NCBI GenBank assembly: GCA_963787375.1
Contig: CAWBCR010000011.1
Span: forward strand, 42,847 to 106,846
Direction of reading: 5' to 3'
Source: an uncultured Chloroflexia bacterium
GTDB taxonomy: Bacteria > Chloroflexota > Anaerolineae > Aggregatilineales > UBA3940
DNA: 64,000 nt
A program made the translations under genes and the position numbers. Under the pieces are notes generated by a model. The model worked only from the letters and a program-made list of their open reading frames with translations. It was not told the DNA's origin and did not search any database. Positions 39,480-57,180 of the stretch are shown here, in pieces. The first letter of the stretch is position 1; every line of letters starts with the position of its first letter.

Positions 39480-41209
39480 TCAGCGCCGTAGCCAGCGCCA
39501 CACCATGCCCGCCGCGCCGCCAAGGTCGCCAGAACGCACGTGATCCCATAGCACAACACCCTTCTGTATCAGCAGATCGTAGAAGTTCTGCGTGCCATGC
39601 GCGAAAGTCTTGGGTGATACACAGCCCCCCTGATACACGCCAACCATATTCTCCGGGTCCGACCTAATATGGAAAACACCGCTGGGCGAGCGCGGCCACC
39701 ATACCACAAGTGTGTCGGTTGCACCTTGGGCCTGTTCAGCCAGGCGCTGCGCCAGCCTGTTCAGCTTGGCCGGTCCGACGTTGTAGGCCTCGATGCGCGC
39801 CGGGGCAAACAGCGTCCGGCTGGGATAGGTGGTGACGATGTAATCAGCCGAGTCGACCTGTGGATCAGCTTCCAGTGCGTTGAGCATCGACGAACTGGCA
39901 CTCTCAAAGATCAGCACGGCCTGCTGATCACCGGTGACGATGTCGACCGAATCCTCGTTGATACTCACTTCAACGCCATAGCGCTGCCCATAATACTGGG
40001 CGACCTGGAACGTGCCAAAATAGCGCACCGGCAGGCCAGCCTGTGCAGCCTGCGCCATCACCTGATCGACAGCCGGATAAGCTGTCTGCGAGCCTGCAAA
40101 CGCGTCAAGCGCGTGGCTGAACATGTTCAGCGGCAGCCCCAGCACGATGATCAAAACACCGGCAGCCCGCTGAAGCGACTGCCAGCGCACCGGGGTGCGC
40201 AACTTCACCCAGGCAACCGCGCGCATCGCCGTTACGGTCGAGGCTACTGCGAGCAGCGGGTAGGCCCCGGCGAACATACGCGGCGTCAGGAATGTATTGT
40301 GCATCAGGCTGACGCGCAGGCTGTAGAAGATAACGATCGACCAGCCGCTGGCGTAAATCGCATCCAGCAACGGTTCGCCCTGCCTGCGCATCAGCGGATA
40401 GCTCACGCCGAGCACGATCAGAGCAGCATTCAGCCAGCCGTTAGCCACACTCATCATGTGAATGAGATGCGTGACCGGCCATCCACCCGCCTTCACGCCG
40501 GAATTCGAGAGACGCAGCGCATCCGCGATCTCGCTGCGCACCCACTCAAAGGGAATACCGGTGTACAGGAAGTGAGCGGTCTCCAGGACCACAAGCGGCA
40601 GCAGCACACCGGCGACCAATGCCGCCAGATGGCGGAGCTGGCGGGTATCCGGGTCGAACAGCGCCGAGAAACCCAGCCAGGCAGCGACCGGCACCATGAA
40701 GTTGAAGTGTGAGGTGAATGCCAGCCCCAGCCCAATGCCCGCCCACAGATAGCGGCGGTCAGCGTGCAGCATCAGGCCCAGGGCAAAGAAGGCCAGCGGA
40801 TAGCCGATATGCATGCGGGTGTAGTACAGAATCGCGGGTAGGCTGATAAACCACAGTGTCCCGACCAGCGCCCAGCGCCGCGACCCGCTCAAGCGGGCCG
40901 TCAGACGGAACAGCGCCACAGCCATCAGCGCGCCCAGCAGAGTCAGGATCAGCATCTCCCACACGGGGTTGGGGCCAAACAGCGCGAAGGGCACACTCAA
41001 TATAACCATCGGCGCGAGGGTGGCAGCCGTGTAGCCCCAGCAGCCGTGGATCAGGTCGATGGCGGCCACATCCTGTGTGACGGTGTCCTGGTGCAAGAAG
41101 AGGAGCCTGGGCCCAACGAGCCTGCCGCCACCAGCAAGAAAACCAGGCCTGCCAGCAGCCACGTGCGAGCCTTGAGCGCCGCAAACCATGCAGCCCAATC
41201 GACATTCAT
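39480..41209 (-). CDS. GT-C-like (ArnT/PMT-type) multipass membrane protein; apparent frameshift near 41110
   Basis: About 11 TM plus a soluble C-terminal domain; GIGLGLAFTSHF; start MNVDWAAW after GGAG. Confidence 0.55.
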
Positions 41210-41230: not shown

Positions 41231-44052
41231 TTATTTCAGGTCACCCCAGCTTTGACCGGCGCGGGCATCGACCTTGAGCGGCACATCCATGGGGTAGGCG
41301 TTCTCCATCACATCACGCACCAGCCCGATGACTTCGTCCGTCTCGGAGTCGGGCGCTTCTAGCAGCAGCTCGTCGTGCACCTGGAGGATCATGCGGCTGC
41401 GCAGCTCGCGCTCCGTGAGCGCGTCGTGCAGCCTGACCATCGCGATCTTGATGATGTCGGCGGCAGTGCCCTGGATCGGCATGTTGACCGCTTCACGCTC
41501 GGCGGCGCGCCGAGCGATCATCGCCTGCTGGCTGGTATCGCCCGATTGGAAGATGGAGAAGTAGCGGCGGCGGCCCAGCAGCGTCTCGACATAGCCCCGT
41601 TCGATGGCCTGCTGTTTGGTCGTTTCGAGATAGTCGCGCACCTTCGGGAAGCGCTCGAAGTATGTCTTGATGAAATCCTCCGCTTCGGGCAGCGTCAACT
41701 CTGAATCGCGCGCCAGCCGGAAGGCCCCCATGCCGTACAGCAGCCCGAAGTTCACCGCTTTGGCAAAGCTGCGCATGGCGGGCGTCACCTCAGCCAGCGG
41801 GATGTTGAATACGGTCGCGGCGGTGGTGGCGTGGATGTCCTGCCCCTCGCGGAAGGCCTGGCGCAGCGCCTCATCACCGGAGATGTGGGCCATGACGCGC
41901 AGCTCTACCTGCGAGTAGTCGGCGCCGACCAGTTTGTGGCCCGGCGCGGAGATGAAGGCATCGCGCACGCGGCGGCCAAAGTCCCTGCGGATGGGGATGT
42001 TTTGCAGATTGGGGTCGCTGGAGCTAATGCGCCCGGTGATGGCCCCGGTCTGGTTAAAGGAGGAATGGATCCGCCCGGTGCGCGGGTTAACCATCTGCGG
42101 CAGCGCGTCGACGTAGGTCGAGCGCAGCTTCTCCAACTCGCGGTAGTCGAGGATGGCCTGCACCACGCCCGACGTGTCCTGCTCCAGCAGTCGAGTCGAG
42201 CACGTCGGCGGCGGTCGAGTAGTAGCCGCTCTTGGTCTTGCGCAGCCCCTGCGTGGGCAACTGGAGCTTTTCGAACAGCACTTCACTAAGCTGCTGCGTC
42301 GAGTTGAGATTGAACTCATTGCCAACGGTGTTGGTGATGCTGCGAACGATCTCGTCCAGCGATCCGGCGATCTCCGCGGACATCTTCTCCAGCAGCTTCA
42401 CGTCGACCAGCACGCCAGCCATCTCCATGTCGGCCAGCACAGGCACCAGCGGCATCTCGACCTCGTAGAACAGCTTCTCAAGCTGCTGGTCGGCGAGGTC
42501 TTTGCGGATCGGCGCGACAAGCTGAAGCGTCATGTCGGCGTCGGCGGCAGCATAGGGCGCGGCCTTGTCGACGGGCACCAGGTCCATCGTGATCTGCTTT
42601 TTGCCAGTGCCCAGCAGGTCGGCAATCTCAGTCATCTGGACGCCCAGCCGGAAGAAGGCAACCGCCTTCAGGCCCAGCTTGCGCTGCGCCGAATCGGGAC
42701 GCACCAGCCACTCGCCGATCATCGTGTCGAAGCTCAACGGCTGCACATCAAGTCCATGGCGGGTGAGCATCACAGCGTCATATTTGATGTTGTGCCCGTA
42801 CTTGGGAATATCGGGGTTGGTCAGCGCAGGACGCAGCCGCTCGACGACGGTCTCAATCGGAAGCTGCGGCGACGCGTCGCCCCCTTGGTGCCCGACCGGG
42901 ATGTAATAGCCCTCGCCCGGCTCGACGGCCAGCGAGATACCGACGAGCTCCGCCTGCATCTGATCGGTGCTGGTGGTCTCGGTGTCAAAGGCGATGCCCT
43001 GTGCCTGCTCCAGCCGCCTCGCCAGCGCGTCGAGCGCCTGTGCGTCGCGCACGATGACCGTCGCGGTCACCGGCTCCGGCAGCGGTGCGCCGGTCAGCGC
43101 CGAGGTGGCCGGGGCCTCGCCAAACAGCGAAAGCTGCTGGCCGTCGGACGGCGGCGCATCCGGCTCGCCATCACCGGCGGAAAGCTCCCGGAGGAATGTG
43201 CGAAACTCAAGCTCGCGAAATATCTCCACCACTTCGTCGCGGTTGAAGTCATGGGTGCGGCACGCCTCCAGATCGAACGCAAGCGGCACGTCGGTGACGA
43301 TCTGCGCCAGCTTATAGCTCAAATAGGCCGCGTCGCGATTCGCTTCAAGCGCCATGCGCGTGCGTTTGCTGGTAATCTCTGCAAGGTGGGCATAGATGTT
43401 GTCGAGCGTGCCATATTTCTGGATCAGATCGGTGGCCGACTTCTCACCCACCCCGGCCACGCCAGGGATATTGTCGGACTTGTCGCCGACGAGCGCCTTG
43501 AAGTCGACGATGCGCAGCGGGTCGAAGCCGAAGCGGTCGCGCACGGCCTGGATGTCGTACAGTTCGACCTCGCCGCTGCGGCGACCCGGAAGCTGCACGA
43601 GCGTGTGCTCGCTGACCAACTGGAGCAAGTCTTTGTCGCCAGTAACGATCAGCGTCTCGACGCCCTGCTGCTCGGCCAGCCGCGAGATGGTGCCGCAGCA
43701 CGTCGTCCGCCTCGAAGCCGTCGACCTCCAGCACCGGGACGTTGAAGGCGCGCAGTACGTCATGCATCCTGCCGATCTGCACGTGCAGGCTGTCGGGCAT
43801 TTTCTCGCGGGTGCCCTTGTACGCCTCGAACAGGTCGTCGCGGAAGGTCGCGCCCACGTCGAAGCTGACTGCCAGGTAATCGGGCGGGTCCTCGCCCGTG
43901 ATCAGGTTGATCAGCGTGCGGGTGAAGCCGTAGGTTGCGTTGGTTGGCTCGCCGCTGCGGGTTGTCATGTCGACCTGGAGAGCAAAGAACATGCGATAGG
44001 CAAGCCCGTGCCCGTCGATGATGACCAGTCGCTTGCCGGCCGATTCTGGCAT
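41231..44052 (-). CDS. polA: DNA polymerase I; apparent frameshifts near 43695 and 42190
   Basis: IDGHGLAYR, GFEADDV, TGDKDLLQL, FDTETT, TGRISSSDPNLQNIP, ADYSQVELR, QVHDEL. Confidence 0.96.
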
Positions 44053-44510: not shown

Positions 44511-44580
44511 GAGCACTCCTTTCCTAACTACGCCGTCCTGAGCCGCAAGCACGGGGCCTCCCGCCCGGACGTATGGCACA

Positions 44581-45321
<741 letters not shown>

Positions 45322-45329
<8 letters not shown>

Positions 45330-47556: not shown

Positions 47557-48759
47557 ATGGACACAGCTAAGCAAGAACGGGTGGATATTTTCGACAAGAT
47601 AAAGGGCTTCACACGTGCCAGGGAAGCTCAAGCGGCGGGCGTTTACCCCTTCTTTATCCCATTTGACGATTCAGAGGGCACCATCGTCCGCTACCAGGGG
47701 CGCGAGATCATCATGATCGGCTCGAATAACTACCTCGGGCTGACCACCCACCCCAAAGTGCGCGAGGCGGCAGAGGCAGCCGTCCGGCGCTACGGCACCA
47801 GCTGCACCGGCTCGCGCTTCATGAACGGCACCCTTGCTATACATGAGGAGCTTGAACATCGCCTGGCGAAGTTCGTCGGCAAGGAACGAGCGCTGGTGTT
47901 CAGCACCGGCTACCAGACCAACCTGGGCACGATCTCGGCCATCGTCGGGCGCGGCGACTTCATCATCACCGACAAGGAAGACCATGCGAGCATCGTCGAC
48001 GGCTGTATGCTGTCTCTCGGCGAGCTCAAACGCTTCAAGCACAGCGACATGGACGACCTCGACCGCGTGCTGAGCAAGCTGCCGACTGAGGCCGGCAAGA
48101 TCGTCATCGTCGACGGGGTGTACAGCATGGGCGGCGACATCGCGCCGCTGCCCGAGATTATCAAGCTGTGCAAGAAGTACGGCGCTCGCCTGATGGTCGA
48201 CGACGCGCACAGCATGGGCGTTCTGGCCGGGGGGCGCGGCACGTCGGCCCATTTCGGCGTCACAGACGACGTGGACCTGATCACCGGCACCTTCAGCAAG
48301 TCGTTCGCGTCCATCGGCGGGTTTGTCGCGGGCGACGACGACGTGCTGCACTTTATCCAGCACCACGCCCGCGCGCTGATCTTCAGCGCCAGCCTGCCGG
48401 CATCGAACGTGGCAGCGGTGCTGGCCGCGCTCGACGTGATCGAGACGGACCCCAGCTACGTCCAGCGCGTATGGGACAACGCCGATTACATGAAGAAGGG
48501 CCTGAGCGAACTAGGCTTCAACATCGGCAACAGCCAGACGCCGATCATTCCCATCATCGTCAACGACGACATGCGGGCCCTCCTGTTCTGGAAGGCGCTG
48601 TTCGAAGCGGGCCTGTTTACGAACCCGGTCATTCCGCCTGCGGTCCCGCCGAACATGGCGCTGCTGCGCACCAGCTACATGGCTACCCACACCACCGAAC
48701 AGCTCGACCGCGCGTTGAGCATCCTCGACGAGGTCGGGCACCAACTGAACATCATCTAG
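47557..48759 (+). CDS. Alpha-oxoamine synthase, serine palmitoyltransferase-like
   Basis: AAGVYPFF N-terminus, GSNNYLGLT, GSRFMNGT, DHASIVDG, VDDAH, GTFSKS, IFSAS. Confidence 0.8.
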   Translation: MDTAKQERVDIFDKIKGFTRAREAQAAGVYPFFIPFDDSEGTIVRYQGREIIMIGSNNYLGLTTHPKVREAAEAAVRRYGTSCTGSRFMNGTLAIHEELEHRLAKFVGKERALVFSTGYQTNLGTISAIVGRGDFIITDKEDHASIVDGCMLSLGELKRFKHSDMDDLDRVLSKLPTEAGKIVIVDGVYSMGGDIAPLPEIIKLCKKYGARLMVDDAHSMGVLAGGRGTSAHFGVTDDVDLITGTFSKSFASIGGFVAGDDDVLHFIQHHARALIFSASLPASNVAAVLAALDVIETDPSYVQRVWDNADYMKKGLSELGFNIGNSQTPIIPIIVNDDMRALLFWKALFEAGLFTNPVIPPAVPPNMALLRTSYMATHTTEQLDRALSILDEVGHQLNII

Positions 48760-48770
48760 ACCTGTATGAC

Positions 48771-48805
48771 AAAAGGCGCACACCCCGGCGGGGTGTGCGC
48801 CTTTT
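48771..48805. terminator. Bidirectional terminator
   Basis: AAAAGGCGCACACCCC-GGC-GGGGTGTGCGCCTTTT. Confidence 0.85.
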
Positions 48806-48825
48806 CCTTTGCGCGCAGAGAAGGA

Positions 48826-49728
48826 TCAGAGCCGTCTCAGCCGGCTAACCACCGAGCGCCACAGGCGGGCAAGAAATGGCCGCGACGCCTCGCCCACTTC
48901 GTCGGCAGCCTGCGCCAGGCTGGCAATGCCGCGCCCCTGAAGCTCCTGATTGTGCCGCCACACCCATACGAACAGGTCGGCCTCGGTGCGGTTCGGGAAG
49001 CGTTCGAGCAAGCCCCGCTCCTTGATGATCTGCACGGCGGGCGTATAGATCATGTCATACCAGGCCGGGACGGCATCCTCGTAGGAAAACGGCTCCCCAT
49101 CGATCTGCTCCAGCACCTGCCGGAACAGTGCGATCTGGTATTCCAGCTCGCGATAGTGGCCCGGCGTGGTGAAGACAACGCTCTGCTCAGGCCGCAGACG
49201 GTCGAGGTGGGTGCGATCCAGAAAGTCAGCATACTCGGCCCTGATCAGCACCTCGTCGAGGTCGGCGTCCTCGCTGAGGCCAACCGGTGTCACGAACTCC
49301 CAGACGTGCGCCAGGATGCTGCCCATCCCCGATTGGCGCGCAACCGACACGCGGTGATTGCCGTCCAGCACGAAATACGCGTCACCAACCTGGTAGACCT
49401 CAATCGGCGGCGCGCCCCGCGTGAAGGTCACCGTGTTGACGCGCATCCAGCGGTCGCGCATGTCGTCTTTGCGGGGCAGGTACGTGCTCGTAAAATCACG
49501 ATAGCGCCCCACACTGCCCCGGATGGCCGACAGTGGTATCTCCTGCAGGCCGCGGTAGTTCTTCTGGCTGAGGCGAAGCTGCTCCTTAACCTGGTCAAAC
49601 GACAGCAGGTCCGTCGATTTCCGGCTGAACACAGACAGCACGTCCTCAATACCGGCGCTGTGGCGCGCGCGTTCCCAGTTGCGATGGGCTTCCTGCCGGG
49701 CGAGCATGTTGTCTTCGTCGAACGCCAT
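48826..49728 (-). CDS. ParB-like/DUF4032-type protein
   Basis: IRGSVGRYRDF, PPIEVYQVG..YFV.DGNHRVSVAR, TEADLF.W. Confidence 0.75.
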   Translation of the reverse strand: MAFDEDNMLARQEAHRNWERARHSAGIEDVLSVFSRKSTDLLSFDQVKEQLRLSQKNYRGLQEIPLSAIRGSVGRYRDFTSTYLPRKDDMRDRWMRVNTVTFTRGAPPIEVYQVGDAYFVLDGNHRVSVARQSGMGSILAHVWEFVTPVGLSEDADLDEVLIRAEYADFLDRTHLDRLRPEQSVVFTTPGHYRELEYQIALFRQVLEQIDGEPFSYEDAVPAWYDMIYTPAVQIIKERGLLERFPNRTEADLFVWVWRHNQELQGRGIASLAQAADEVGEASRPFLARLWRSVVSRLRRL

Positions 49729-49859
49729 GAACCTTTACCTCATCAAGCGGAGACGTGCAGGCGTAGTATAACATCTGGATCTAACCGGTGCATGAAGAAA
49801 AGGGGCCCGGAGGCATAAACCGCCGGGCCCAACACATCGATGCGCCAACAGGCAGCGCG

Positions 49860-50993
49860 TTACGCTTTCTTGGCCCTGGATTTCGACTTGGCAGCCGCTT
49901 TAGGCTTATCGGCGGTGGCGCTATCGCCCCGGATGAAGGCTTCCGTCTTGTTGCGGGCAATGTCGTCAGGATACTGCTCAGGCGGCGACTTCATAAAATA
50001 GCTGGCGGGCGCGTACAGCGGGCCGCTCAGGCCGCGGTCGAGGCCCAGCTTGGCGCAGCGCACCGCGTCGATCACGACGCCGGCTGAATTGGGACTGTCC
50101 CACACTTCCAGCTTCAACTCGACGTTCAGCGGCACGTCGCCGAAGGTGCGGCCTTCCAGCCGGATATACGCCCACTTGCGGTCGGTGAGCCACGGGACGT
50201 AGTCGCTGGGGCCAATGTAGACGTTGTCGGGGTCCATCTTCTCGCTGAGCTGCGAGGTGACCGCCCCGGTCTTGCTGATCTTCTTGCTCTCCAGCCGCTC
50301 GCGCTCCAGCATGTTGTAGAAGTCCATGTTGCCGCCGACGTTGAGCTGGCTGGTGCGCTCCAGCCGGACGCCACGATCTTCAAACAGGCGGGCCAGCACG
50401 CGGTGAACGATTGTCGCGCCGACCTGGCTCTTGATGTCGTCGCCGATAACCGGCAGGCCGCGATCGATAAAGCGCTGCTGCCAGTATTCCTCGCGCGCGA
50501 TAAAGACCGGGATGCAGTTGACCAGTGCGCAGCCAGCGTTCAGGATGTGCTCGATGTACCACTTGGTGGCCTGCTCGCTGCCGACCGGCAGGTAATTGAC
50601 TACCACGTCAGTGCCGGTGTCTTTGAGGATCTGCTCGATGTTGGCTGTCTTGCCGGGCGCTTTGGTGATCTTCATGCTCAGGTATTTGCCCAGCCCGTCG
50701 TGGGTCATTCCACGGTGGACAGGCACGTTCATCTTAGGCACATCGGCAAACTTGATGGTGTTGTTCTGCCCGGACCAGATCGCGTCAGACAGGTCTTTGC
50801 CGACCTTCTCGATGTCAATGTCAAACGCAGCGCTGAATTCGATGTCGCTGACGTGATAGCCGCCCAGGTTAACGTGCATCAGGCCGGGGACGCGCTCGTC
50901 GTCTTTGGCGTTACGATAGAATTGAATCCCCTGCACCAGGGACGAGGCACAATTGCCAACGCCGATAATGGCAACACGCACTTTCTTGCTCAA
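49860..50993 (-). CDS. ino1: myo-inositol-3-phosphate synthase
   Basis: [53 protein letters not shown]. Confidence 0.96.
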
Positions 50994-51087
50994 CGAAACC
51001 TCCTGACGGATTGTGCTGGAAGAACGGGCCGATCCACTGGCCGAACCCGGAAAGGGACCACTCCCCCGATAGTATACGCCGCGATGC

Positions 51088-51339
51088 TCAGCTTATCCAG
51101 TCGCGATGAATGGGATCCCAGTTCCGGTGGGCATACGAGCGATGGCACTCGCGGCAAATCTGCGCAGTGGCGATCTCGTGCCCCGGCGTACGCCAGCGCC
51201 AGCGAACATTCACCAGATGATAGCGGCAGGTTGGCCGATGGCAGATCGGGCACTCCTGGCCGCCCGATAAGCCGGCGCTCCCCCAGTGACGTCCCTCATC
51301 CGGATCCTGTTCGCAGATGTAGCAATGCGTAATGGGCAT
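51088..51339 (-). CDS. Small Cys/His-rich (Zn-finger-like) hypothetical protein
   Basis: CxxC, CxxC-x3-CxxH, CxxC in 83 aa. Confidence 0.7.
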
Positions 51340-51605
51340 GTTTGTGAACACTCTTACGGCCCGGCTGAAGCGGGCGATGGATCAGGCCGCGCGGCGATTA
51401 TACCAGCCCCGGCAGGTTTACCAAAGAGCCCACCCCGGCTGTCATATCCATTCTGTCGTGTGTCATATTCAGGGGGTGATATCCGTCACTTGTGGACAAT
51501 AACGGCCTGAATTACGCTTAACTTGACTATTCAGATGTCCAGTGCCCGAATTGCGCTTATTGGCTGCCAATCAGACATGTGGCACCTAACTAAAGTGAGG
51601 TAACC

Positions 51606-52037
51606 ATGCTAGAGATAACCCGCCAGGCGGATTATGCCCTGCGTGCCAGCGTTGAGGTCGCACGGCTGCCCGAGGGCGAACGCGCACCGACGGCTGCCAT
51701 CGCCGAGCGCCAGCAGATACCGCTGCCGTTCCTGGCCAAGATTGTATCCCAGCTTGTCGTCCGCGGAGTTCTGGAAGCGACACGCGGCGCCAGCGGCGGC
51801 GTCAGCCTAGCCCGCCCGGCTGACAACGTGACCATGCTGGAGATCATCGAGGCGATTGACGGTCCGATCACCATCAACCGCTGCACACGCGATGCCTCTG
51901 CCTGTGACATGTCGCCGGCCTGCCCATTCTGCGAGATCTTCACCGAGGCGCAGCGGGCACTCGTCGACAAGCTCCATAACACCACGCTGGCCCAGCTCGT
52001 CGCGCGATCTGAAGAGCTGGAAGGCGCTGCGGCCTGA
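51606..52037 (+). CDS. Rrf2-family transcription regulator
   Basis: DYALRA, IAERQQIP..FLAKI, RGASGG..LAR, EAIDG; Cys cluster. Confidence 0.92.
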   Translation: MLEITRQADYALRASVEVARLPEGERAPTAAIAERQQIPLPFLAKIVSQLVVRGVLEATRGASGGVSLARPADNVTMLEIIEAIDGPITINRCTRDASACDMSPACPFCEIFTEAQRALVDKLHNTTLAQLVARSEELEGAAA

Positions 52038-52052
52038 TCCGCGCGCCAGCAC

Positions 52053-52994
52053 CTACTTCTCAACCCGTTCCAGGGGCTGCTCGCTCTTGACACTGAAGTG
52101 GTCAAAGTCGCGGGCGACCACAGCCCCTGGGAAGTACTCTTCTGCTTCTGCCTGAATATCCCGCTCCCGGTAGCGCCGTGACACGTGCGTGATGATTAAA
52201 TTCCTGACGCCGCATGACACGGCCAGCTCCGCTGCCTGCCGCACGGTGAGGTGTCCGAACCGCTGCGCCAGGTCTGTTTCGTAGTTCAGGTAAGTCCCCT
52301 CGACGACCAGCGCATCCGCGCCCCGAACATAGGCCGCCAACGCCTCTGCGCGGCCCACATCGCCAGTAATGCACAGCTTCTCACCCGGCTGCGATGGCCC
52401 CAGCACCTCGTCCGGCGCGACCACGCGCCCATCCGGCAGCGTGACGGGCCTGCCATCGACCAGATCGCGGCGCTCCGGCCCACGCGGCACGCCCAGCGCC
52501 TCGGCACGGTCGGCCAGAAAAGGGCGGCGCGGCTTGCGCTCGAACGTATAGCCAAAGCAGTCCGGCCCGCGATGCTCCACCGGGAAGGCAGTTACCGCGA
52601 ACTCGTCGTCCTCTATCAGCAAGCCGGGCTTCACCTCGTACAGATCGATGCCAACCGGCGTTCGCGCGCCGCGCAGCACGACGCCGAAGATCAGGTCGTG
52701 GACGCGGTCCAGCGTGGACTTACCACCCCATATCTCGATGCGCTCGGCGGCCTCCCAGCGGGCGAAGGTCGAGATCAGACCGGCCAGCCCCAGAATATGA
52801 TCGAGATGGCTGTGAGTCAGCAGAATTTTGTCAAGCCGGCGAAAGCCCAGCCGGCTGCGCAGAATCTGGCGCTGGGTGCCTTCGCCGCAGTCGACGAGAA
52901 AGCGATACTCTTTGTGCATCACGATCTGGGCGCTCAGCCCGCGCTGAATCGATGGCGCGCTGGCCGACGTGCCCAGGAAGACAATCTCAAACAC
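52053..52994 (-). CDS. rnz: Ribonuclease Z
   Basis: FLGTSAS.P, DCGEGTQ, THSHLDHILGL, GP exosite, HLT, THVS.RY. Confidence 0.92.
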   Translation of the reverse strand: MFEIVFLGTSASAPSIQRGLSAQIVMHKEYRFLVDCGEGTQRQILRSRLGFRRLDKILLTHSHLDHILGLAGLISTFARWEAAERIEIWGGKSTLDRVHDLIFGVVLRGARTPVGIDLYEVKPGLLIEDDEFAVTAFPVEHRGPDCFGYTFERKPRRPFLADRAEALGVPRGPERRDLVDGRPVTLPDGRVVAPDEVLGPSQPGEKLCITGDVGRAEALAAYVRGADALVVEGTYLNYETDLAQRFGHLTVRQAAELAVSCGVRNLIITHVSRRYRERDIQAEAEEYFPGAVVARDFDHFSVKSEQPLERVEK

Positions 52995-53060
52995 GCAGTA
53001 TCCTTCGATAAGTCACCGGCGAAGGCCGGGCAGGGAACATCTCGTGCGTCGCGGCGATGG

Positions 53061-53795
53061 CTATGGGCGCACACGCTCCGACTGGAACCAGCGGATATCC
53101 AGCCAAGCGATGAGCTGCCGCGCCACCGGGTGCGTCAGCCGAACAGAGGCCTCAAAGCGCTGCGGCGAAAACGAGTACATGCGCACGTAATGCGGACGCA
53201 GCACGAAGATACAGTAATCGTCTTCCCAGCGGCGGCTGCTCCATAGAAAGGCCACACCGGCATCGCGCTGCATGAGGTCCAGCCAGCGACGCTTGTCGTA
53301 GCTGCTCAGGTTGCCGATGTGGAAGCGCAGGGCCAGCATGTGGTTCAGCGTGAAGGTCGCCTCGGTGGCGTCCTGGTCACCGTACAGGTCAAACGACAGC
53401 ATCGCGCTGGAGTCCTGGCTGGTGAGCATGGCCGTGGCCCGGCTGGCGGCGCGCGTGTCCTGCGGTGAGCGCGCAATCGAGGTCAGCAGCGGCGCCTTAG
53501 CAAAGCGGCGAGCCAGCTCGGTGTCGAGGTCGATTTCACCGCGCAGGAACTGCTTGATGGTCAGGGGGGCCTGGTCGATCTTGATGCTGCGGCGCAGCGA
53601 CCCGGTGCCGCTCAGGTCACGCAGCAGGCGCTGGCGATCCTGCGCCGAGATATGCGCATGGGAAGCCAACGCCGCCGGGTTCAGACGTCCGGTTCCGGGC
53701 GGAAGACCCTCACGCTGGAATCCTTCGTCATCTTTCCGGGGCGCCGGCGCGCCAATGGTTGGCGTATCGCCGGGATCAAAGTCGAAGTTGCTCAT
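53061..53795 (-). CDS. Hypothetical protein
   Basis: 244-aa ATG ORF filling the gap, plausible codon usage; FLWSSRRWEDDY. Confidence 0.65.
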   Translation of the reverse strand: MSNFDFDPGDTPTIGAPAPRKDDEGFQREGLPPGTGRLNPAALASHAHISAQDRQRLLRDLSGTGSLRRSIKIDQAPLTIKQFLRGEIDLDTELARRFAKAPLLTSIARSPQDTRAASRATAMLTSQDSSAMLSFDLYGDQDATEATFTLNHMLALRFHIGNLSSYDKRRWLDLMQRDAGVAFLWSSRRWEDDYCIFVLRPHYVRMYSFSPQRFEASVRLTHPVARQLIAWLDIRWFQSERVRP

Positions 53796-54078
53796 GCTCG
53801 CTGCCCTTCAACAGGCGCCAGACTGTGATGGCTACCAGTCCTGTCTGGATGTTGTTTCACTATAGCACGCCGCTGGCATCGAGGGCAAATATCGAGCGCA
53901 TCCGCCGCTGTTGCGTCCTGCCTGGCTTTGCTGTAACCTTGACACAGTTAATCCCTTGATCGACATCCTGTGACGCAAGGTGTCACACCTGCGCAGTATA
54001 CTGAATTCAACACCGGATTACTGGGACGATATGCGCCTGCTGCCAGACGGCAGGCGGCATCAGACAAAGGAGTTTGAC

Positions 54079-54480
54079 GTGTTTCAGCAATGCATTATTG
54101 TTGGCAATCTGGGGCGCGATCCTGAGATGCGCTACATGCCCGACGGAAAGCCGGTCACGAACTTCACGGTGGCCGTCAACCGCCGCTGGACGTCGCAGGA
54201 TGGCACACAGAGCGAAAAGACGTGGTGGTTCCGCGTGGCCTGCTGGGGCCGCCTGGCCGAGACAACCAACCAGTACCTCAAGAAGGGCCGCCAGGTGATG
54301 GTCATCGGCGAGGTCGACGCTTCAGCATTCACGGGGCAGGACGGCCAGGCGCGCGCTTCGCTGGAGCTGACCGCGCGTGATGTCAGGTTCCTGGGTGGCC
54401 GCGACGAATCGGCAGGCGGCGATATGATGGGCGGAAGCGCCAGCGGGCCGGCGCAGGACGAGGAAGACATCCCATTCTAA
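54079..54480 (+). CDS. ssb: Single-stranded DNA-binding protein
   Basis: GNLGRDPEMRY, C-terminal EDIPF; AAGGAG then GTG. Confidence 0.95.
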   Translation: MFQQCIIVGNLGRDPEMRYMPDGKPVTNFTVAVNRRWTSQDGTQSEKTWWFRVACWGRLAETTNQYLKKGRQVMVIGEVDASAFTGQDGQARASLELTARDVRFLGGRDESAGGDMMGGSASGPAQDEEDIPF

Positions 54481-54485
54481 ACCTT

Positions 54486-55179
54486 ATGGAACCCCTTGAC
54501 ACCATTGGCGATGACATTCGCACCGAGTTCGAAGTCACGGAACAGCGCCCGCGATCAGGCCCTGGCCCGATCGCGGGAGCTTGTACGCCGCTGCGCCGCG
54601 ACGATCAAGGCCGTCCATCGCCAGAACTGGGACGATGCCCGGTCGGGCCTCGAAACCGTGCGGGCGGCTGCGCAAGAACTGATCAAAGGGGTAGCGCCCT
54701 ACCCGGACCTGTTCCACTCGGGCTATACGCAGGATGGGCTGAAAGAGTACGTCGAGGCATTCGCGACGTTTGCGCTGGTGCGCGGCGAGGACCTCCCCAC
54801 ACCGCAGGAGCTCGACGTGCCGGGGGCGACATATCTCAACGGCCTGTGCGAAGCGGCCAGCGAGCTGCGCCGCACGGTGCTCGACATCATCCGGCAGGGG
54901 CACAGCGAGGAGGCCGAACGCCTGCTCGATCAGATGGACACGATCTACAACCTGTTGATGACGTTCGACTTTCCCGACGCGATCACCGGCGGGCTGCGCC
55001 GCCGTGTCGACAGCCTGCGCGGGGTGCTGGAGCGCACGCGCGGCGACCTGACCAACAGCCTGCGGCAGGAGCGCCTGCGGCTAGCTCTGATCGACCTGGA
55101 GCAGCGGCTCGGGTTGTCGATAGACGCAGCAGGCTTCAGCGAGCAGGAAGATGACTTGGACGAACCTCCGCCGGATTGA
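54486..55179 (+). CDS. Translin/TRAX-family protein; apparent frameshift near 54537
   Basis: RDQAL..SRELVR, KEYVEA, YLNGLCEAASELRR, LRRRVD. Confidence 0.85.
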
Positions 55180-55300
55180 CCGGCGCGGATCGTTTATCGC
55201 CACGCGCTGCGGCCAACGCAGATAGATTGCGCGCACCCATCAACGCCCGGACCCGCCGGGATAATACCGTCTGTGATCTGGCATGGAGTAGATCGCACCC

Positions 55301-55933
55301 ATGGTCTCAATACCTGCAATGCTGACCATCATCGAGGGTGAGGGCAAAGACCAGCGATTCATCCTGGAAGAAACCCCCTTTACCATCGGGCGCGCGCCGG
55401 AATGCAGCATGACACTGACGGCCATCGGCGTCTCGCGGCTGCACGCGCGCATCGACTCGGCCTATGGCCAGTACACGATCACCGACATGAGCAGCACGAA
55501 CGGCACATTCGTCAACGACCAGCGCGTCGAGGGCGCGGTGCCGCTGCATCACGGTGACCGCGTCCGCTTCGCGTCGGCCATCGAGACGCTGTTTGAGGAC
55601 CCCTCCGCCACCGCGCAGATCGACGTGGGCCAACTGAGCCTGGGCGGGCTGCGCATCGACGAGACGCGCAAGGAAGTGTTCGTAGATGGGCACCTGGTCG
55701 ACCCGTCGCTCTCTCCGCAGCAGTACGCACTGCTCGAAGTGCTGGTCCACCACGAGGGACAGATCGTCACCCGTGACGAGATCGCCGAAGTGGTATGGCC
55801 CGACCAGGTCGGCGTCAGCGACCAGATGATCGATACGCTCGTCTCCCGCCTGCGCAGCCGGCTGTCCGAGTACAGCCCCGACGATTTCATCGTCACGCGG
55901 CGCGGGTTCGGGTTGATGTTCACCCAGGGATAA
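55301..55933 (+). CDS. FHA domain + winged-helix regulator
   Basis: IGR, VSRLHA, STNGTFVN; VSRLRSRL, IVTRRGFG. Confidence 0.9.
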   Translation: MVSIPAMLTIIEGEGKDQRFILEETPFTIGRAPECSMTLTAIGVSRLHARIDSAYGQYTITDMSSTNGTFVNDQRVEGAVPLHHGDRVRFASAIETLFEDPSATAQIDVGQLSLGGLRIDETRKEVFVDGHLVDPSLSPQQYALLEVLVHHEGQIVTRDEIAEVVWPDQVGVSDQMIDTLVSRLRSRLSEYSPDDFIVTRRGFGLMFTQG

Positions 55934-56046
55934 GGCCGGGACGCCCCTTCGCCTACCCCCCAACGGCAAAGAGGCTCTATAATGACCGGGCCGCTGCGGC
56001 TGCTCAGGCGTGGCGGATCACATCGTCTCTCGCCGGGAGGGTAAGG

Positions 56047-57180
56047 ATGCGCATTCACGAAGTCGACACGACCAGCCGCCGCGACGTCAACCGCTTCATC
56101 AATATCCCCTTCAAACTTTATAAGGACTGCCCGCAGTGGGTGCCCCCCATCCTCCCGGATGCGCGGCTTCAGCTTAACCGCAAGAAATTCCCCTTCTATA
56201 AGCACAACGATGCGACGTTCTTCATCGTCGAGCAGGACGGGCAAGACGTGGGGCGGATGGCGGCGCTGCATCCCAAGTTCTATAACGAGTTCAAAGGGCT
56301 GCAAAACGCTCACTTCTGGCTGTTTGACAGCATCGACGACCAGGATGCCGCCAATGCGCTGTTCGATGCCGGCCTAGACTGGGCGCGCCAACGCGGGCTG
56401 AAGGTCTTTCGCGGGCCGCTAGGCTTTATGGCCGCCGACGGGATCGGGATGCTGGCCAAAGGCTTCGAGTACCTGCCGGCGGTGAGCATCCCCTACAACT
56501 ACGAGTACTATCCACGGCTGGCCGAAACGTGGGGCTTCAAGCTGGAGGAGCGGGTCTATTCCGGCTCTATCGACCTGCCCCGGCTGCGCGAGGACTTTCC
56601 GCAGCGCGTGCTGGACGTGGCAGAGAAGGTCAAGAAGCGCTACGGGTTCACGGTCAAGACGTTCAAGAACAAGCGCGAGCTGCGCACATGGGTCGCGCCA
56701 CGCCTGGCCGAAGTCTACAACCGCACGCTGACGCACATCGCCGGCGACCCGCCGCTGTCGCAGGAAGAGGTCGACACCGTCGCCGACAACCTGCTGATGA
56801 TCACCGACCCACAGCTTCTCAAGTTCGTGATGAAGGACGACGAGATCGTCGGCTTCCTGTTCTGCTTCCTCAACATCTCGAAGGGCATCCAGAAAGCAAG
56901 AGGGCGGCTGTTCCCGTTCGGCATCTTCCACATTCTGCTTGACCTGCGGCGCACCACCATGCTCGATCTAAACGGCATGGGCATCGTGCCCGAATACCAG
57001 GGCATGGGCGGCACCGCCGTGATGTACGCCGAGCTGTACCACGCCACCATGAACTTTCCGCGCTTCACGCACGGCGAGGCAGTGCAGATCTCCGAGTTCA
57101 ACGCCAAGAGCCTTAACGAGATGCCCAAATTCGGCGCGAAGTGGTACAAGACGCACCACATCTACCGCCGAGAGGTGTAA
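56047..57180 (+). CDS. YghO-like GNAT protein, bacterial ceramide synthase (bCerS)-like
   Basis: F..IP.KLY..CPQWVPP, VGRMAA, FDSIDD..AA.ALF, RGP, GML..GF, PYN..YY, GIVPEYQGMG. Confidence 0.7.
   Translation: MRIHEVDTTSRRDVNRFINIPFKLYKDCPQWVPPILPDARLQLNRKKFPFYKHNDATFFIVEQDGQDVGRMAALHPKFYNEFKGLQNAHFWLFDSIDDQDAANALFDAGLDWARQRGLKVFRGPLGFMAADGIGMLAKGFEYLPAVSIPYNYEYYPRLAETWGFKLEERVYSGSIDLPRLREDFPQRVLDVAEKVKKRYGFTVKTFKNKRELRTWVAPRLAEVYNRTLTHIAGDPPLSQEEVDTVADNLLMITDPQLLKFVMKDDEIVGFLFCFLNISKGIQKARGRLFPFGIFHILLDLRRTTMLDLNGMGIVPEYQGMGGTAVMYAELYHATMNFPRFTHGEAVQISEFNAKSLNEMPKFGAKWYKTHHIYRREV

Follow-up and report, generated by a model that had tools for sequence, protein, structure and literature searches.

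The window, by which we mean the whole 64,000-nucleotide stretch of DNA analyzed here, encodes an alpha-oxoamine synthase whose identity as an Spt-like enzyme rather than BioF/Kbl is supported by its sequence, and this protein likely has Spt activity. The host is an uncultured, sediment-type member of the Anaerolineae (Chloroflexota; order Aggregatilineales/Phototrophicales, as judged by which sources are named for close homologues of a window protein), which we take to have the monoderm envelope of its phylum. Because its genome (G000; 83% complete) holds candidates for the full Spt-acyltransferase-reductase set, ceramide-type lipids are likely, as a preliminary description of this DNA had supposed, and the bacterium probably makes ceramide. 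We consider it fairly probable that the pathway as a whole is initiated by Spt, that its remaining genes are scattered, and that ino1 is separate from it. The three genes on which the preliminary description was built (synthase, ino1, and GNAT) were found where it had placed them (Table 1).

Table 1. Features of the window discussed in the text
Feature	Position	Strand	Details
Spt-like alpha-oxoamine synthase, Bacteroidota/CFB type	47557..48759	+	400 aa; intact ORF; Schiff-base lysine K248, stacking His143
Conserved hypothetical protein between spt and ino1	48826..49728	-	300 aa; neighbor outside the assigned pathway
myo-Inositol-1-phosphate synthase ino1, mycobacterial type	49860..50993	-	377 aa; TTG start; PF01658, TIGR03450
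Orphan protein, Anaerolineae/Chloroflexi	53061..53795	-	244 aa
YghO/bCerS-family GNAT acyltransferase	56047..57180	+	377 aa; one of five genome paralogues

The alpha-oxoamine synthase

All four motifs singled out in the preliminary description (GVYPFF, GSRFMNGT, GTFSKS, and IFSAS) are present in the synthase. Among the NCBIfam profiles, the CFB Spt model NF047600 gives the best score (536 bits, compared with 379 for BioF, 358 for Kbl, and 235 for HemA). This score is below the curated NF047600 cut-off of 640 bits, so the protein is not filed in that equivalog; the cut-off is passed by 0 of the 121 genomes of the class, in which 73 matches score 491 to 566 bits. The window enzyme is 46 to 50% identical to three Bacteroidota proteins that do pass it. 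In a PDB search, the top match is the Spt of Sphingobacterium multivorum (SmSPT; 8GUH/3A2B) at 426 bits, with a Kbl/BioF enzyme at 289 bits and a cysteate acyltransferase at 276 bits. The alignment with SmSPT extends over residues 12 to 393 with one gap and pairs K248, H143, D215, H218, and T245 of the window synthase with K244, H138, D210, H213, and T241. The alpha-oxoamine synthase fold is thus intact, with its PLP lysine, stacking His, and Asp/His pair.

Of the active-site residues named in the available passages of PMC10196870, 13 of 14 are identical in the window synthase, and the one that differs is a main-chain contact, where M271 of SmSPT is replaced by Ile275. The serine-contacting residues N52, G80, S81, H138, and S243 (SmSPT numbering) are all retained. 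So is A274, and the combination of G80/S81 with A274 is absent from the three Kbl and two BioF rows compared. The phylogeny that the preliminary description had proposed as a check falls on the Spt side: in two trees, the synthase groups with curated Spt of Bacteroidota, Sphingomonas, and E. coli, apart from Kbl/BioF (SH-aLRT 99 and 93 to 95). These were quick trees with separately checked reference labels, and they left out HemA, cysteate acyltransferase, and the characterized Caulobacter, B. thetaiotaomicron, and Sphingobacterium proteins. In contrast to the S. multivorum enzyme, the window enzyme belongs to a separate Anaerolineae clade, and its host belongs to the Chloroflexota. An Spt orthologue is present in 39 of 40 relatives, and Spt was found in 73 of the 121 Anaerolineae genomes of the class.

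Candidate acyltransferases and reductase

As had been recognized from the start, the three genes do not form a single operon: 7.3 kb separate the GNAT from the synthase, and this interval contains ino1 plus eight further genes, with both strands used. The conserved hypothetical protein encoded next to spt had no family match in Pfam and NCBIfam searches; 11 of 37 loci, each belonging to the window's own family, have a homologue close to spt. The orphan gene, whose named homologues are all from Anaerolineae/Chloroflexi, is near spt in 13 of 37 loci, from three families. The best Foldseek match of its predicted structure (pLDDT 82.6) has an E value of 4.6e-3, and this weak hint of a Whirly/PUR/SsgA-like fold suggests that the orphan is likely unrelated to lipids. 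The stretch contains no reductase or CDP-alcohol transferase, in agreement with the preliminary description, and candidates for both are found elsewhere in the genome.

Gene order in relatives points to likely partners of Spt. Among 40 spt loci, mainly from other orders, an extended reductase is at most about 2 kb from spt in 11 and a YghO-like GNAT in 6. Same-strand runs of GNAT, reductase, and spt occur in G221 and G251, and G047 has a same-strand run of spt, GNAT, a glycosyltransferase-like gene, and reductase.

The assignment of the window GNAT to the YghO/bCerS family holds. A ribosome-binding site precedes its ATG, its orthologues align from residue 1 or 2, and in a tblastn search it is 25.8% identical to E. 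coli YghO across 98% of its length (E = 2e-24); YghO served here as a stand-in for Caulobacter bCerS, whose listed counterpart it is in the available passages of PMC9386255. In the ESM Atlas the protein falls in GNAT clusters (score, 0.98). Its suggested role as the ceramide synthase fared less well, since another of the five YghO/bCerS-like paralogues of G000 groups with the GNATs of spt operons. In the tree, the window GNAT is outside the clade of spt-operon GNATs and belongs to an Anaerolineae-dominated clade adjoining Bacteroides/Prevotella homologues (SH-aLRT 99). The G000:C15:23351-24523 paralogue is the best or tied-best match of five of the six spt-linked GNATs from other orders and groups with them; only that of G107 is of the window type. 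An AU test rejected the window GNAT and the C15 group as one clade (p 1e-12; the groups were named after the tree had been seen). Participation of the window GNAT in ceramide synthesis thus appears possible but doubtful. In a 111-genome sample of the phylum, a YghO-like GNAT is present in all 6 Spt-positive genomes and also in 12 of 105 genomes without CFB-type Spt, one of which (G130) showed only a Kbl-like synthase, indicating that YghO-like GNATs are not ceramide specific.

The best reductase candidate is an HpnA-like extended reductase, G000:C17:552247-553317, the gene for which is surrounded by unrelated genes. It forms a clade with five spt-adjacent Anaerolineae reductases (support, 98), but the sub-clade of spt-linked enzymes from E. 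coli, Sphingomonas, and Streptomyces does not include it. It resembles the E. coli enzyme weakly (30%, E = 6e-14), far short of the 1e-30 that Ding et al. required for CerR. Of the 41 genomes of the order, 36 contain a match to it.

From the observed genes, homologies, tree positions, distribution, and neighborhoods, we infer every activity, substrate, and product of the following scheme. A soluble Spt would catalyze the first ceramide step, condensing L-serine with a fatty acyl thioester and so giving a 3-keto long-chain base. The base would be N-acylated by a YghO/bCerS-family GNAT, for which the C15 paralogue is the best candidate and the window GNAT the second, and the 3-keto group would be reduced by the C17 reductase. 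In the available passages of PMC9386255 and PMC11087976, the pathways of Caulobacter crescentus (Spt-bCerS-CerR) and E. coli (ECD_02854/yghO/ECD_02852) share with this genome an Spt homologue, YghO-family GNATs, and extended-SDR reductases, which relatives of the window genome encode in operons. Here, in contrast, the genes are spread over three contigs, the GNAT has five paralogous forms, and the most promising reductase candidate is HpnA-like and falls outside the proteobacterial spt-linked sub-clade. A genome search for the specialized ACP of the E. coli ceramide cluster gave no match. CerR is described as periplasmic in Caulobacter in the passages of PMC11087976, and a different arrangement would be needed here.

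The inositol question and alternative readings

The ino1 gene is convergent with the synthase gene and 1,100 bp from its end, close to the 1 kb originally estimated. Its product matches PF01658 and TIGR03450 (566 bits; cut-off, 638) and resembles the mycobacterial enzyme (PDB 1GR0, 509 bits) rather than that of B. thetaiotaomicron (7NWR, 30 bits). Across the class, 48 of the 73 genomes with Spt and 33 of the 48 without it have ino1 (Fisher p 0.84). The synteny check proposed earlier gave a divided answer: within the window's own order, 16 of 37 spt loci, from two families, include ino1, but none of the 40 loci taken mainly from other orders has it near spt. The genome search for a PI(P) synthase yielded a candidate. 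This PIP-synthase-like CDP-alcohol transferase (G000:C27:106694-107365, on a contig other than the window's) matches PDB 6H5A (E = 1.7e-24), scores best with the AIP/PIP synthase models, under their cut-offs (152/180 and 126/170 bits), and carries the motif DxxDGxxAR...GxxxDxxxD; such a gene occurs in 30 of the order's 41 genomes.

G000 thus has both MIPS and a PIP-synthase-like CDP-alcohol transferase, as does the B. thetaiotaomicron BT_1522-BT_1526 system in the available passages of PMC9246714, according to which PI-ceramide requires BT_1522. However, MIPS is of the mycobacterial type here and the genes are unclustered. No BT_1522/Aur1-like PAP2_3 protein (PF14378) over the cut-off was found in the 83% complete G000, which has one weak 23.4-bit match; B. 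thetaiotaomicron, the control, does match, as do 10 of 41 genomes of the order. This search covered the Aur1/BT_1522 type of phosphoinositol transfer; an alternative NTP-transferase/HAD route has also been proposed. We regard ino1 as a probable neighbor inherited in a conserved chromosome block. It likely serves ordinary phosphatidylinositol instead of ceramide: its product would supply inositol phosphate to the C27 enzyme for glycerol-based phosphatidylinositol. The inositol-sphingolipid reading of the preliminary description is not supported, and production of inositol-phosphoceramide appears improbable.

That spt, ino1, and the window GNAT are a loosened functional cluster making inositol-phosphoceramide as in B. 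thetaiotaomicron is correspondingly hard to credit. It would account for the ino1-containing spt loci of the order, for the four consecutive genes GNAT, orphan, spt, and ino1 in G028 and G040, for the PIP-synthase-like gene, and for the position of the window GNAT clade beside Bacteroides and Prevotella. However, the spt-adjoining GNATs of G028, G034, and G040 belong to the other clade, housekeeping neighbors are retained near spt about as often in the family (ABC binding protein, 12/37; RNase Z-like, 8/37), and the class-wide independence of ino1 from Spt, its absence near spt in the loci mainly from other orders, and the PAP2_3 results all oppose it. A bolder version, which we likewise think improbable, is a monoderm Aggregatilineales with a eukaryote-like membrane of ceramides and inositol-phosphoceramide made without an Aur1/BT_1522-type enzyme, in which up to seven YghO-type acyltransferases per genome would set different N-acyl chains and the spt-ino1-GNAT block in two families would be a pathway remnant.

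Two further alternatives concern the synthase itself. It is unlikely, if less so than an inositol pathway, that the enzyme makes a different amino-lipid backbone from another amino acid or acyl donor (e.g., a 1-deoxy base built on alanine or glycine, or a long-chain base that is short), with the GNATs acting on that product or on other amines. The score below the curated Spt cut-off, the binding of Gly, Ala, homoserine, and Thr by SmSPT itself (in the passages of PMC10196870), and a number of GNAT paralogues that exceeds the needs of one ceramide step are consistent with this, as is a related family of the class in which a divergent synthase carrying N52Y and S81V accompanies window-type GNATs. 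In the window enzyme, however, the serine contacts are all retained, cysteate acyltransferase trails Spt by 150 bits, and the spt-GNAT-reductase operons of relatives are laid out like known ceramide clusters. That the synthase is a divergent BioF or Kbl without any role in lipids, among unrelated neighbors, is less probable still. An AU test did not formally reject a grouping of the Anaerolineae enzymes with Kbl/BioF (p 0.057), and spt has no dedicated operon in the window's order. Yet the profiles, the PDB search, the trees, and the pocket residues consistently point to Spt, and orthologues are located in operons with reductase and GNAT genes. The housekeeping Kbl role is already filled, since a separate Kbl on another contig (G000:C1:23143-24333) passes the Kbl and BioF/Kbl cut-offs. 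No bio or tdh neighbors, the absence of which had been noted before, are found among the ORFs of positions 40000 to 64000 (10 of which were profile scanned), and among 14 control genomes, B. thetaiotaomicron alone has a match at the threshold that the window synthase passes.

Relation to earlier proposals

The ceramide pathway initiated by Spt, which we favor, fits what has been proposed for this group. Sphingolipid production was predicted as likely for Chloroflexota/Anaerolineae by Ding et al. in 2024 (PMC11334938). The available passages of that paper and its 2025 successor (PMC12619533) report 218 Chloroflexota MAGs, infer sphingolipid capacity from an Spt-like gene, and state that the three ceramide genes are frequently not co-located; the lineage and the inference from an Spt-like gene are the same as ours. 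In the Black Sea, ceramides and glycosyl- and lysine-ceramides track Anaerolineae abundance (passages of PMC11334938), and in anoxic sediments Anaerolineae are among the most abundant bacteria and a proposed source of sedimentary sphingolipids (passages of PMC12619533). Potential producers also include Gram-positive Actinobacteria (PMC12134224), and plasmids of Streptomyces and Rubrobacter carry spt-GNAT-reductase operons. The novelty implied by the preliminary description was thus too high: the capacity was already predicted for the group in 2024, and the window is a credible new example and no new system. This order may also be among those treated in the supplement of PMC11334938. The passages of PMC11334938 and PMC12619533 do not specify the GNAT paralogue or the reductase that partners Spt in Anaerolineae, and the word inositol has 0 occurrences in their main texts as available. 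Our literature search found neither direct lipid proof of Anaerolineae sphingolipids nor a long-chain-base analysis of any cultured Anaerolineae.

The idea itself is not new, and its striking inositol twist is unsupported. Nevertheless, the proposal of Anaerolineae sphingolipids is now testable gene by gene, with a likely acyltransferase and reductase that can be named from the operons of relatives and with Spt nearly universal in the order. If confirmed, ceramides would be core membrane lipids in a lineage without a classical outer membrane, and the order of acylation and reduction, argued in Caulobacter from the periplasmic CerR, would become testable where that compartment is likely missing.

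Identity and distribution of the alpha-oxoamine synthase

The NCBIfam model that best matches the window synthase is that of the CFB-type serine palmitoyltransferase (Spt; NF047600) at 536 bits, which is under its cut-off of 640, followed by BioF (379 bits), Kbl (358 bits), and HemA (235 bits). Among solved structures, its best match is Spt from S. multivorum (426 bits), with Sphingomonas Spts at 301 to 320 bits, a Kbl/BioF enzyme at 289 bits, and a cysteate acyltransferase at 276 bits in the same comparison. Thirteen of the 14 active-site residues named in the available excerpt of PMC10196870 are identical in the window enzyme (the exception is M271, which is Ile), and most of these residues also occur across the family. 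The combination of G80/S81 with A274 is found in the Spt rows and in 0/3 Kbl and 0/2 BioF rows. In a quick tree of 37 sequences, a branch with an SH-aLRT of 99 has the window synthase, within a clade of Anaerolineae enzymes, on its Spt side; the Spt references in this tree are limited to proteins that pass curated Spt cut-offs, three from Bacteroidota and one each from Sphingomonas and E. coli, rather than the characterized enzymes. Grouping of the Anaerolineae enzymes with Kbl/BioF is not formally rejected by the AU test (p 0.057). The housekeeping role is filled in the source genome, since a second synthase exceeds the Kbl and BioF/Kbl cut-offs. Based on model ranking, structure matches, pocket residues, and the quick tree, we conclude that the window synthase is Spt-like by sequence rather than BioF/Kbl, as the preliminary description had proposed, with the AU value as a caveat.

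Features of the window and of the source genome
Feature	Contig and position	Strand	Remark
Alpha-oxoamine synthase (Spt-like)	window 47557-48759	+	intact, 400 aa
ino1	window 49860-50993	-	
GNAT (YghO/bCerS family)	window 56047-57180	+	377 aa
Orphan protein	window 53061-53795	-	named homologues all Anaerolineae/Chloroflexi
Second synthase	C1:23143-24333		
Paralogous GNAT	C15:23351-24523		
NDUFA9-like reductase	C15:21100-22026		
HpnA-like reductase	C17:552247-553317		CerR-like by context
PIP/AIP-synthase-like	C27:106694-107365		
Glycosyltransferase-like homologue	C17:450395-451591		
MshA-like	C17:165831-167120		383/462 bits
MshB-like	C22:45764-46606		161/224 bits

Of 40 relatives spanning 8 families of the order, 39 have an spt orthologue (62 to 85% identity); the remaining one, G006, is 89% complete. 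At a threshold of E 1e-135, which B. thetaiotaomicron alone among 14 controls reaches, NF047600 matches 73/121 class genomes and 6/111 phylum genomes (counts including the source genome). Spt belongs to the core genes of the order and is common across the class. In G031, a second copy of Spt, with a HAD hydrolase after it, lies on contig C154 (L094:1406-2080). Outside the phylum, a plasmid of Priestia megaterium (Bacillota; NZ_CP137804.1, L187:5001-6215) encodes a homologue of CFB-type Spt that scores 525 bits, shares 52% identity with the window enzyme, and adjoins an acyltransferase-family and a methyltransferase gene; no YghO-type GNAT is annotated within its 11-kb stretch.

The synthase, ino1, and the GNAT lie where the preliminary description placed them and, as it also stated, are not one operon: 7.3 kb separates synthase from GNAT, with other genes on both strands between. 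Besides ino1 and the orphan, these are a hypothetical gene of 300 aa, a small ORF rich in Cys, genes for an Rrf2 regulator, an RNase Z-like metallo-beta-lactamase, and an FHA-wHTH regulator, and two genes that we take, by recognition, to be ssb-like and translin-like. The source genome totals 3.9 Mb at 83% completeness, and the window comes from its contig C11. In the window, the polA-like gene (41231-44052), ABC ATPase (44528-45329), and translin-like gene (54486-55179) are each broken across at least two frames, most likely by single-base assembly errors; spt, ino1, and the GNAT are unaffected and intact. A promoter/terminator scan gave 8 promoter-like sites versus 2.0 expected, none of them on the + strand ahead of spt or the GNAT. 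One 180-base RNA-library contig maps within spt with one mismatch, although such contigs cannot demonstrate transcription, and no RNA-library run covers half of the window.

The orphan, whose named homologues are labeled Anaerolineae, Chloroflexi, Aggregatilineales, or Phototrophicales, lies 70 to 300 bp from spt on the same strand in G024, G028, G031, and G040. Its predicted model is confident (pLDDT 82.6), with two beta-sheet/helix repeats. It was dropped as a pathway partner, having no Pfam or Atlas match and only Whirly/PUR/SsgA-like fold hints (E 4.6e-3 or weaker).

Candidate acyltransferases and reductases

The window GNAT and E. coli YghO are homologous over their full length, and excerpts of PMC9386255 list YghO as corresponding to CC_1154, an acyltransferase of Caulobacter. 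The best match of the window GNAT among PDB sequences has an E value of 0.46. The source genome encodes five YghO-type proteins, namely the window and C15 copies and those at C11:224734-225867, C17:177434-178564, and C21:44428-45540; relatives have up to seven matches. In a quick tree of 58 sequences, the window GNAT belongs to an Anaerolineae-dominated clade (support 100) adjoining Bacteroides and Prevotella homologues (99), and the C15 paralogue groups with GNATs of spt operons. The Bacteroides GNAT that precedes parE is reportedly the B. thetaiotaomicron ceramide synthase, a point that was not used as evidence. Forcing the window-GNAT and C15 groups together is rejected (p 1e-12, for groups named after the tree was seen). 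For five of the six spt-linked GNATs among 40 spt loci, the C15 protein is the best or tied-best match; that of G107 is window-type. The C15 paralogue is therefore the first candidate acyltransferase by sequence and the window copy the second, so that the preliminary description was right to call the latter YghO/bCerS-like, but it is not the copy that groups with spt-operon GNATs.

YghO-like GNATs are associated with Spt without being confined to it, as they occur in 6/6 Spt-positive and 12/105 Spt-negative genomes of the phylum sample. Of five GNAT-carrying, Spt-negative genomes examined, one has a Kbl-like enzyme only and four (G134, G089, G059, and G080; L194:6559-7767, L195:6879-8087, L196:6518-7726, and L197:6281-7489) have divergent synthases that form a clade outside Spt and apart from Kbl/BioF. 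In their amino-acid pocket these synthases have N52Y and S81V, and they may use another amino acid. The family of the class that has them is mostly without CFB-type Spt, yet window-type GNATs are present.

The 40 loci, picked for long contigs, comprise 36 of the 72 other matches in the class and 4 of the 5 others in the phylum, mainly from other orders. An extended short-chain reductase lies within about 2 kb of spt in 11/40 and a YghO-like GNAT in 6/40. In G221 (L160:5617-9908) and G251 (L171:8433-12833), genes for a classical reductase, a GNAT, an HpnA-like reductase, and Spt follow one another on one strand, with two reductase types within one spt operon; for experiments, these four genes are a better choice than those of the window. 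G047, of another class (L138:7698-12130), has the order spt, GNAT, glycosyltransferase-like gene, reductase. The three-gene layout of spt, GNAT, and reductase is also found on plasmid records of E. coli, Streptomyces, Rubrobacter, and Aureispira. In G047 and G126 (L140:6809-10139), both of other Chloroflexota classes, a putative glycosyltransferase-like gene stands between spt or GNAT and the reductase, which suggests glycosylceramide there; a homologue in the source genome is 33% identical.

The C17 HpnA-like reductase is the best source-genome match of five spt-adjacent HpnA-like reductases (39 to 47% identity), forms one clade with them (support 98), and has a match in 36/41 genomes of the order. 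It is not part of the sub-clade that holds the spt-linked reductases of Proteobacteria and Streptomyces, its match to the E. coli one is at E 6e-14 at best, and it is therefore a ceramide reductase (CerR)-like candidate by context rather than a shown CerR. The NDUFA9-like reductase lies 1.3 kb from the C15 GNAT, but it is not favored as CerR: it is on a long branch off the spt-linked groups, and the E. coli and Streptomyces spt-linked reductases do not match it at E 1e-4. The classical short-chain reductase that precedes spt in G143, G168, G221, and G251, presumably KDSR-like from a sequence motif, has no clear orthologue in the source genome (best matches E 1e-13 to 1e-25). KDSR of B. thetaiotaomicron is described in excerpts of PMC9278070. 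DegV-family fatty-acid-binding genes, identified by Pfam, annotation, or recognition from sequence depending on the locus, adjoin spt or YghO-type GNATs in several Chloroflexota (L063 of G004, L102, and L203 of G080), a possible link to acyl supply.

ino1 and the use of inositol phosphate

The window ino1 belongs to the mycobacterial type, scoring 509 bits with PDB 1GR0 versus 30 bits with 7NWR. It lies within the fetched spt locus in 16/37 loci of the order, some of which stop early at contig ends (13/21 in the window's family and 3/3 in one other), and housekeeping neighbors are kept near spt about as often. In the 40 wider loci, mainly of other orders, it is near spt in none. Among 121 class genomes, ino1 is present in 48/73 Spt-positive and 33/48 Spt-negative genomes (p 0.84, with kin not independent). 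According to the part of PMC9246714 available, PI-ceramide in B. thetaiotaomicron requires BT_1522, an Aur1/PAP2_3-like enzyme, besides MIPS and PIP synthase. The source genome, in contrast, has MIPS and a PIP-synthase-like gene, but at 83% completeness yields no PAP2_3 protein above cut-off; 10/41 genomes of the order have one. The inositol-sphingolipid link of the preliminary description is thus rejected by co-occurrence, by neighborhood, and by the missing Aur1-like enzyme.

A search for CerR and PI(P) synthase, which the preliminary description had proposed, yielded a candidate for the latter: one of two CDP-alcohol transferases is PIP/AIP-synthase-like, with a match in 30/41 genomes of the order, while the reductase is CerR-like by context only. 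Since the second (451 aa) is without an NCBIfam match, no clear PGP synthase is seen in this 83% complete genome. Cultured Chloroflexota reportedly contain phosphatidylinositol (PI), and glycerol-based PI is the simplest sink of inositol phosphate. MshA-like and MshB-like genes are also present, and MshC is not found over cut-off (best 261/485 bits, with stops within the matched region); from the MshA-like gene, mycothiol is a possible second use.

A predicted ceramide pathway

From the genes, homologies, trees, distributions, and neighborhoods observed, we infer the following activities. Spt, in the cytoplasm, would form a 3-keto long-chain base; its N-acylation would fall to a YghO-type GNAT (C15 first, window copy second) and the reduction of its keto group to the C17 reductase, and sequence cannot tell the order of these two steps. 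The ceramide part of the preliminary interpretation is thus supported, with an Spt-like enzyme, GNATs, and a reductase candidate in the genome, but its inositol-sphingolipid part is not.

Ceramide production is already predicted for this lineage. Excerpts of PMC11334938 report Spt-like proteins in 218 Chloroflexota MAGs, a correlation of Anaerolineae with ceramides, glycosylceramides, and lysine-ceramides, and the three sphingolipid genes often apart in genomes; PMC12619533, also in excerpt, repeats the Anaerolineae proposal for sediments. Predictions of monoderm hosts have precedents, because the portions available of PMC11087976 and PMC12134224 predict some Gram-positive producers. New here are the naming of a likely acyltransferase and reductase and the separation of ino1 from the pathway by test. 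Ceramide in Streptomyces aurantiacus was reportedly described by Stankeviciute et al. in 2022, a finding that was not used as evidence. Judged from its gene content, the organism likely makes ceramides, as had been predicted before for its lineage.
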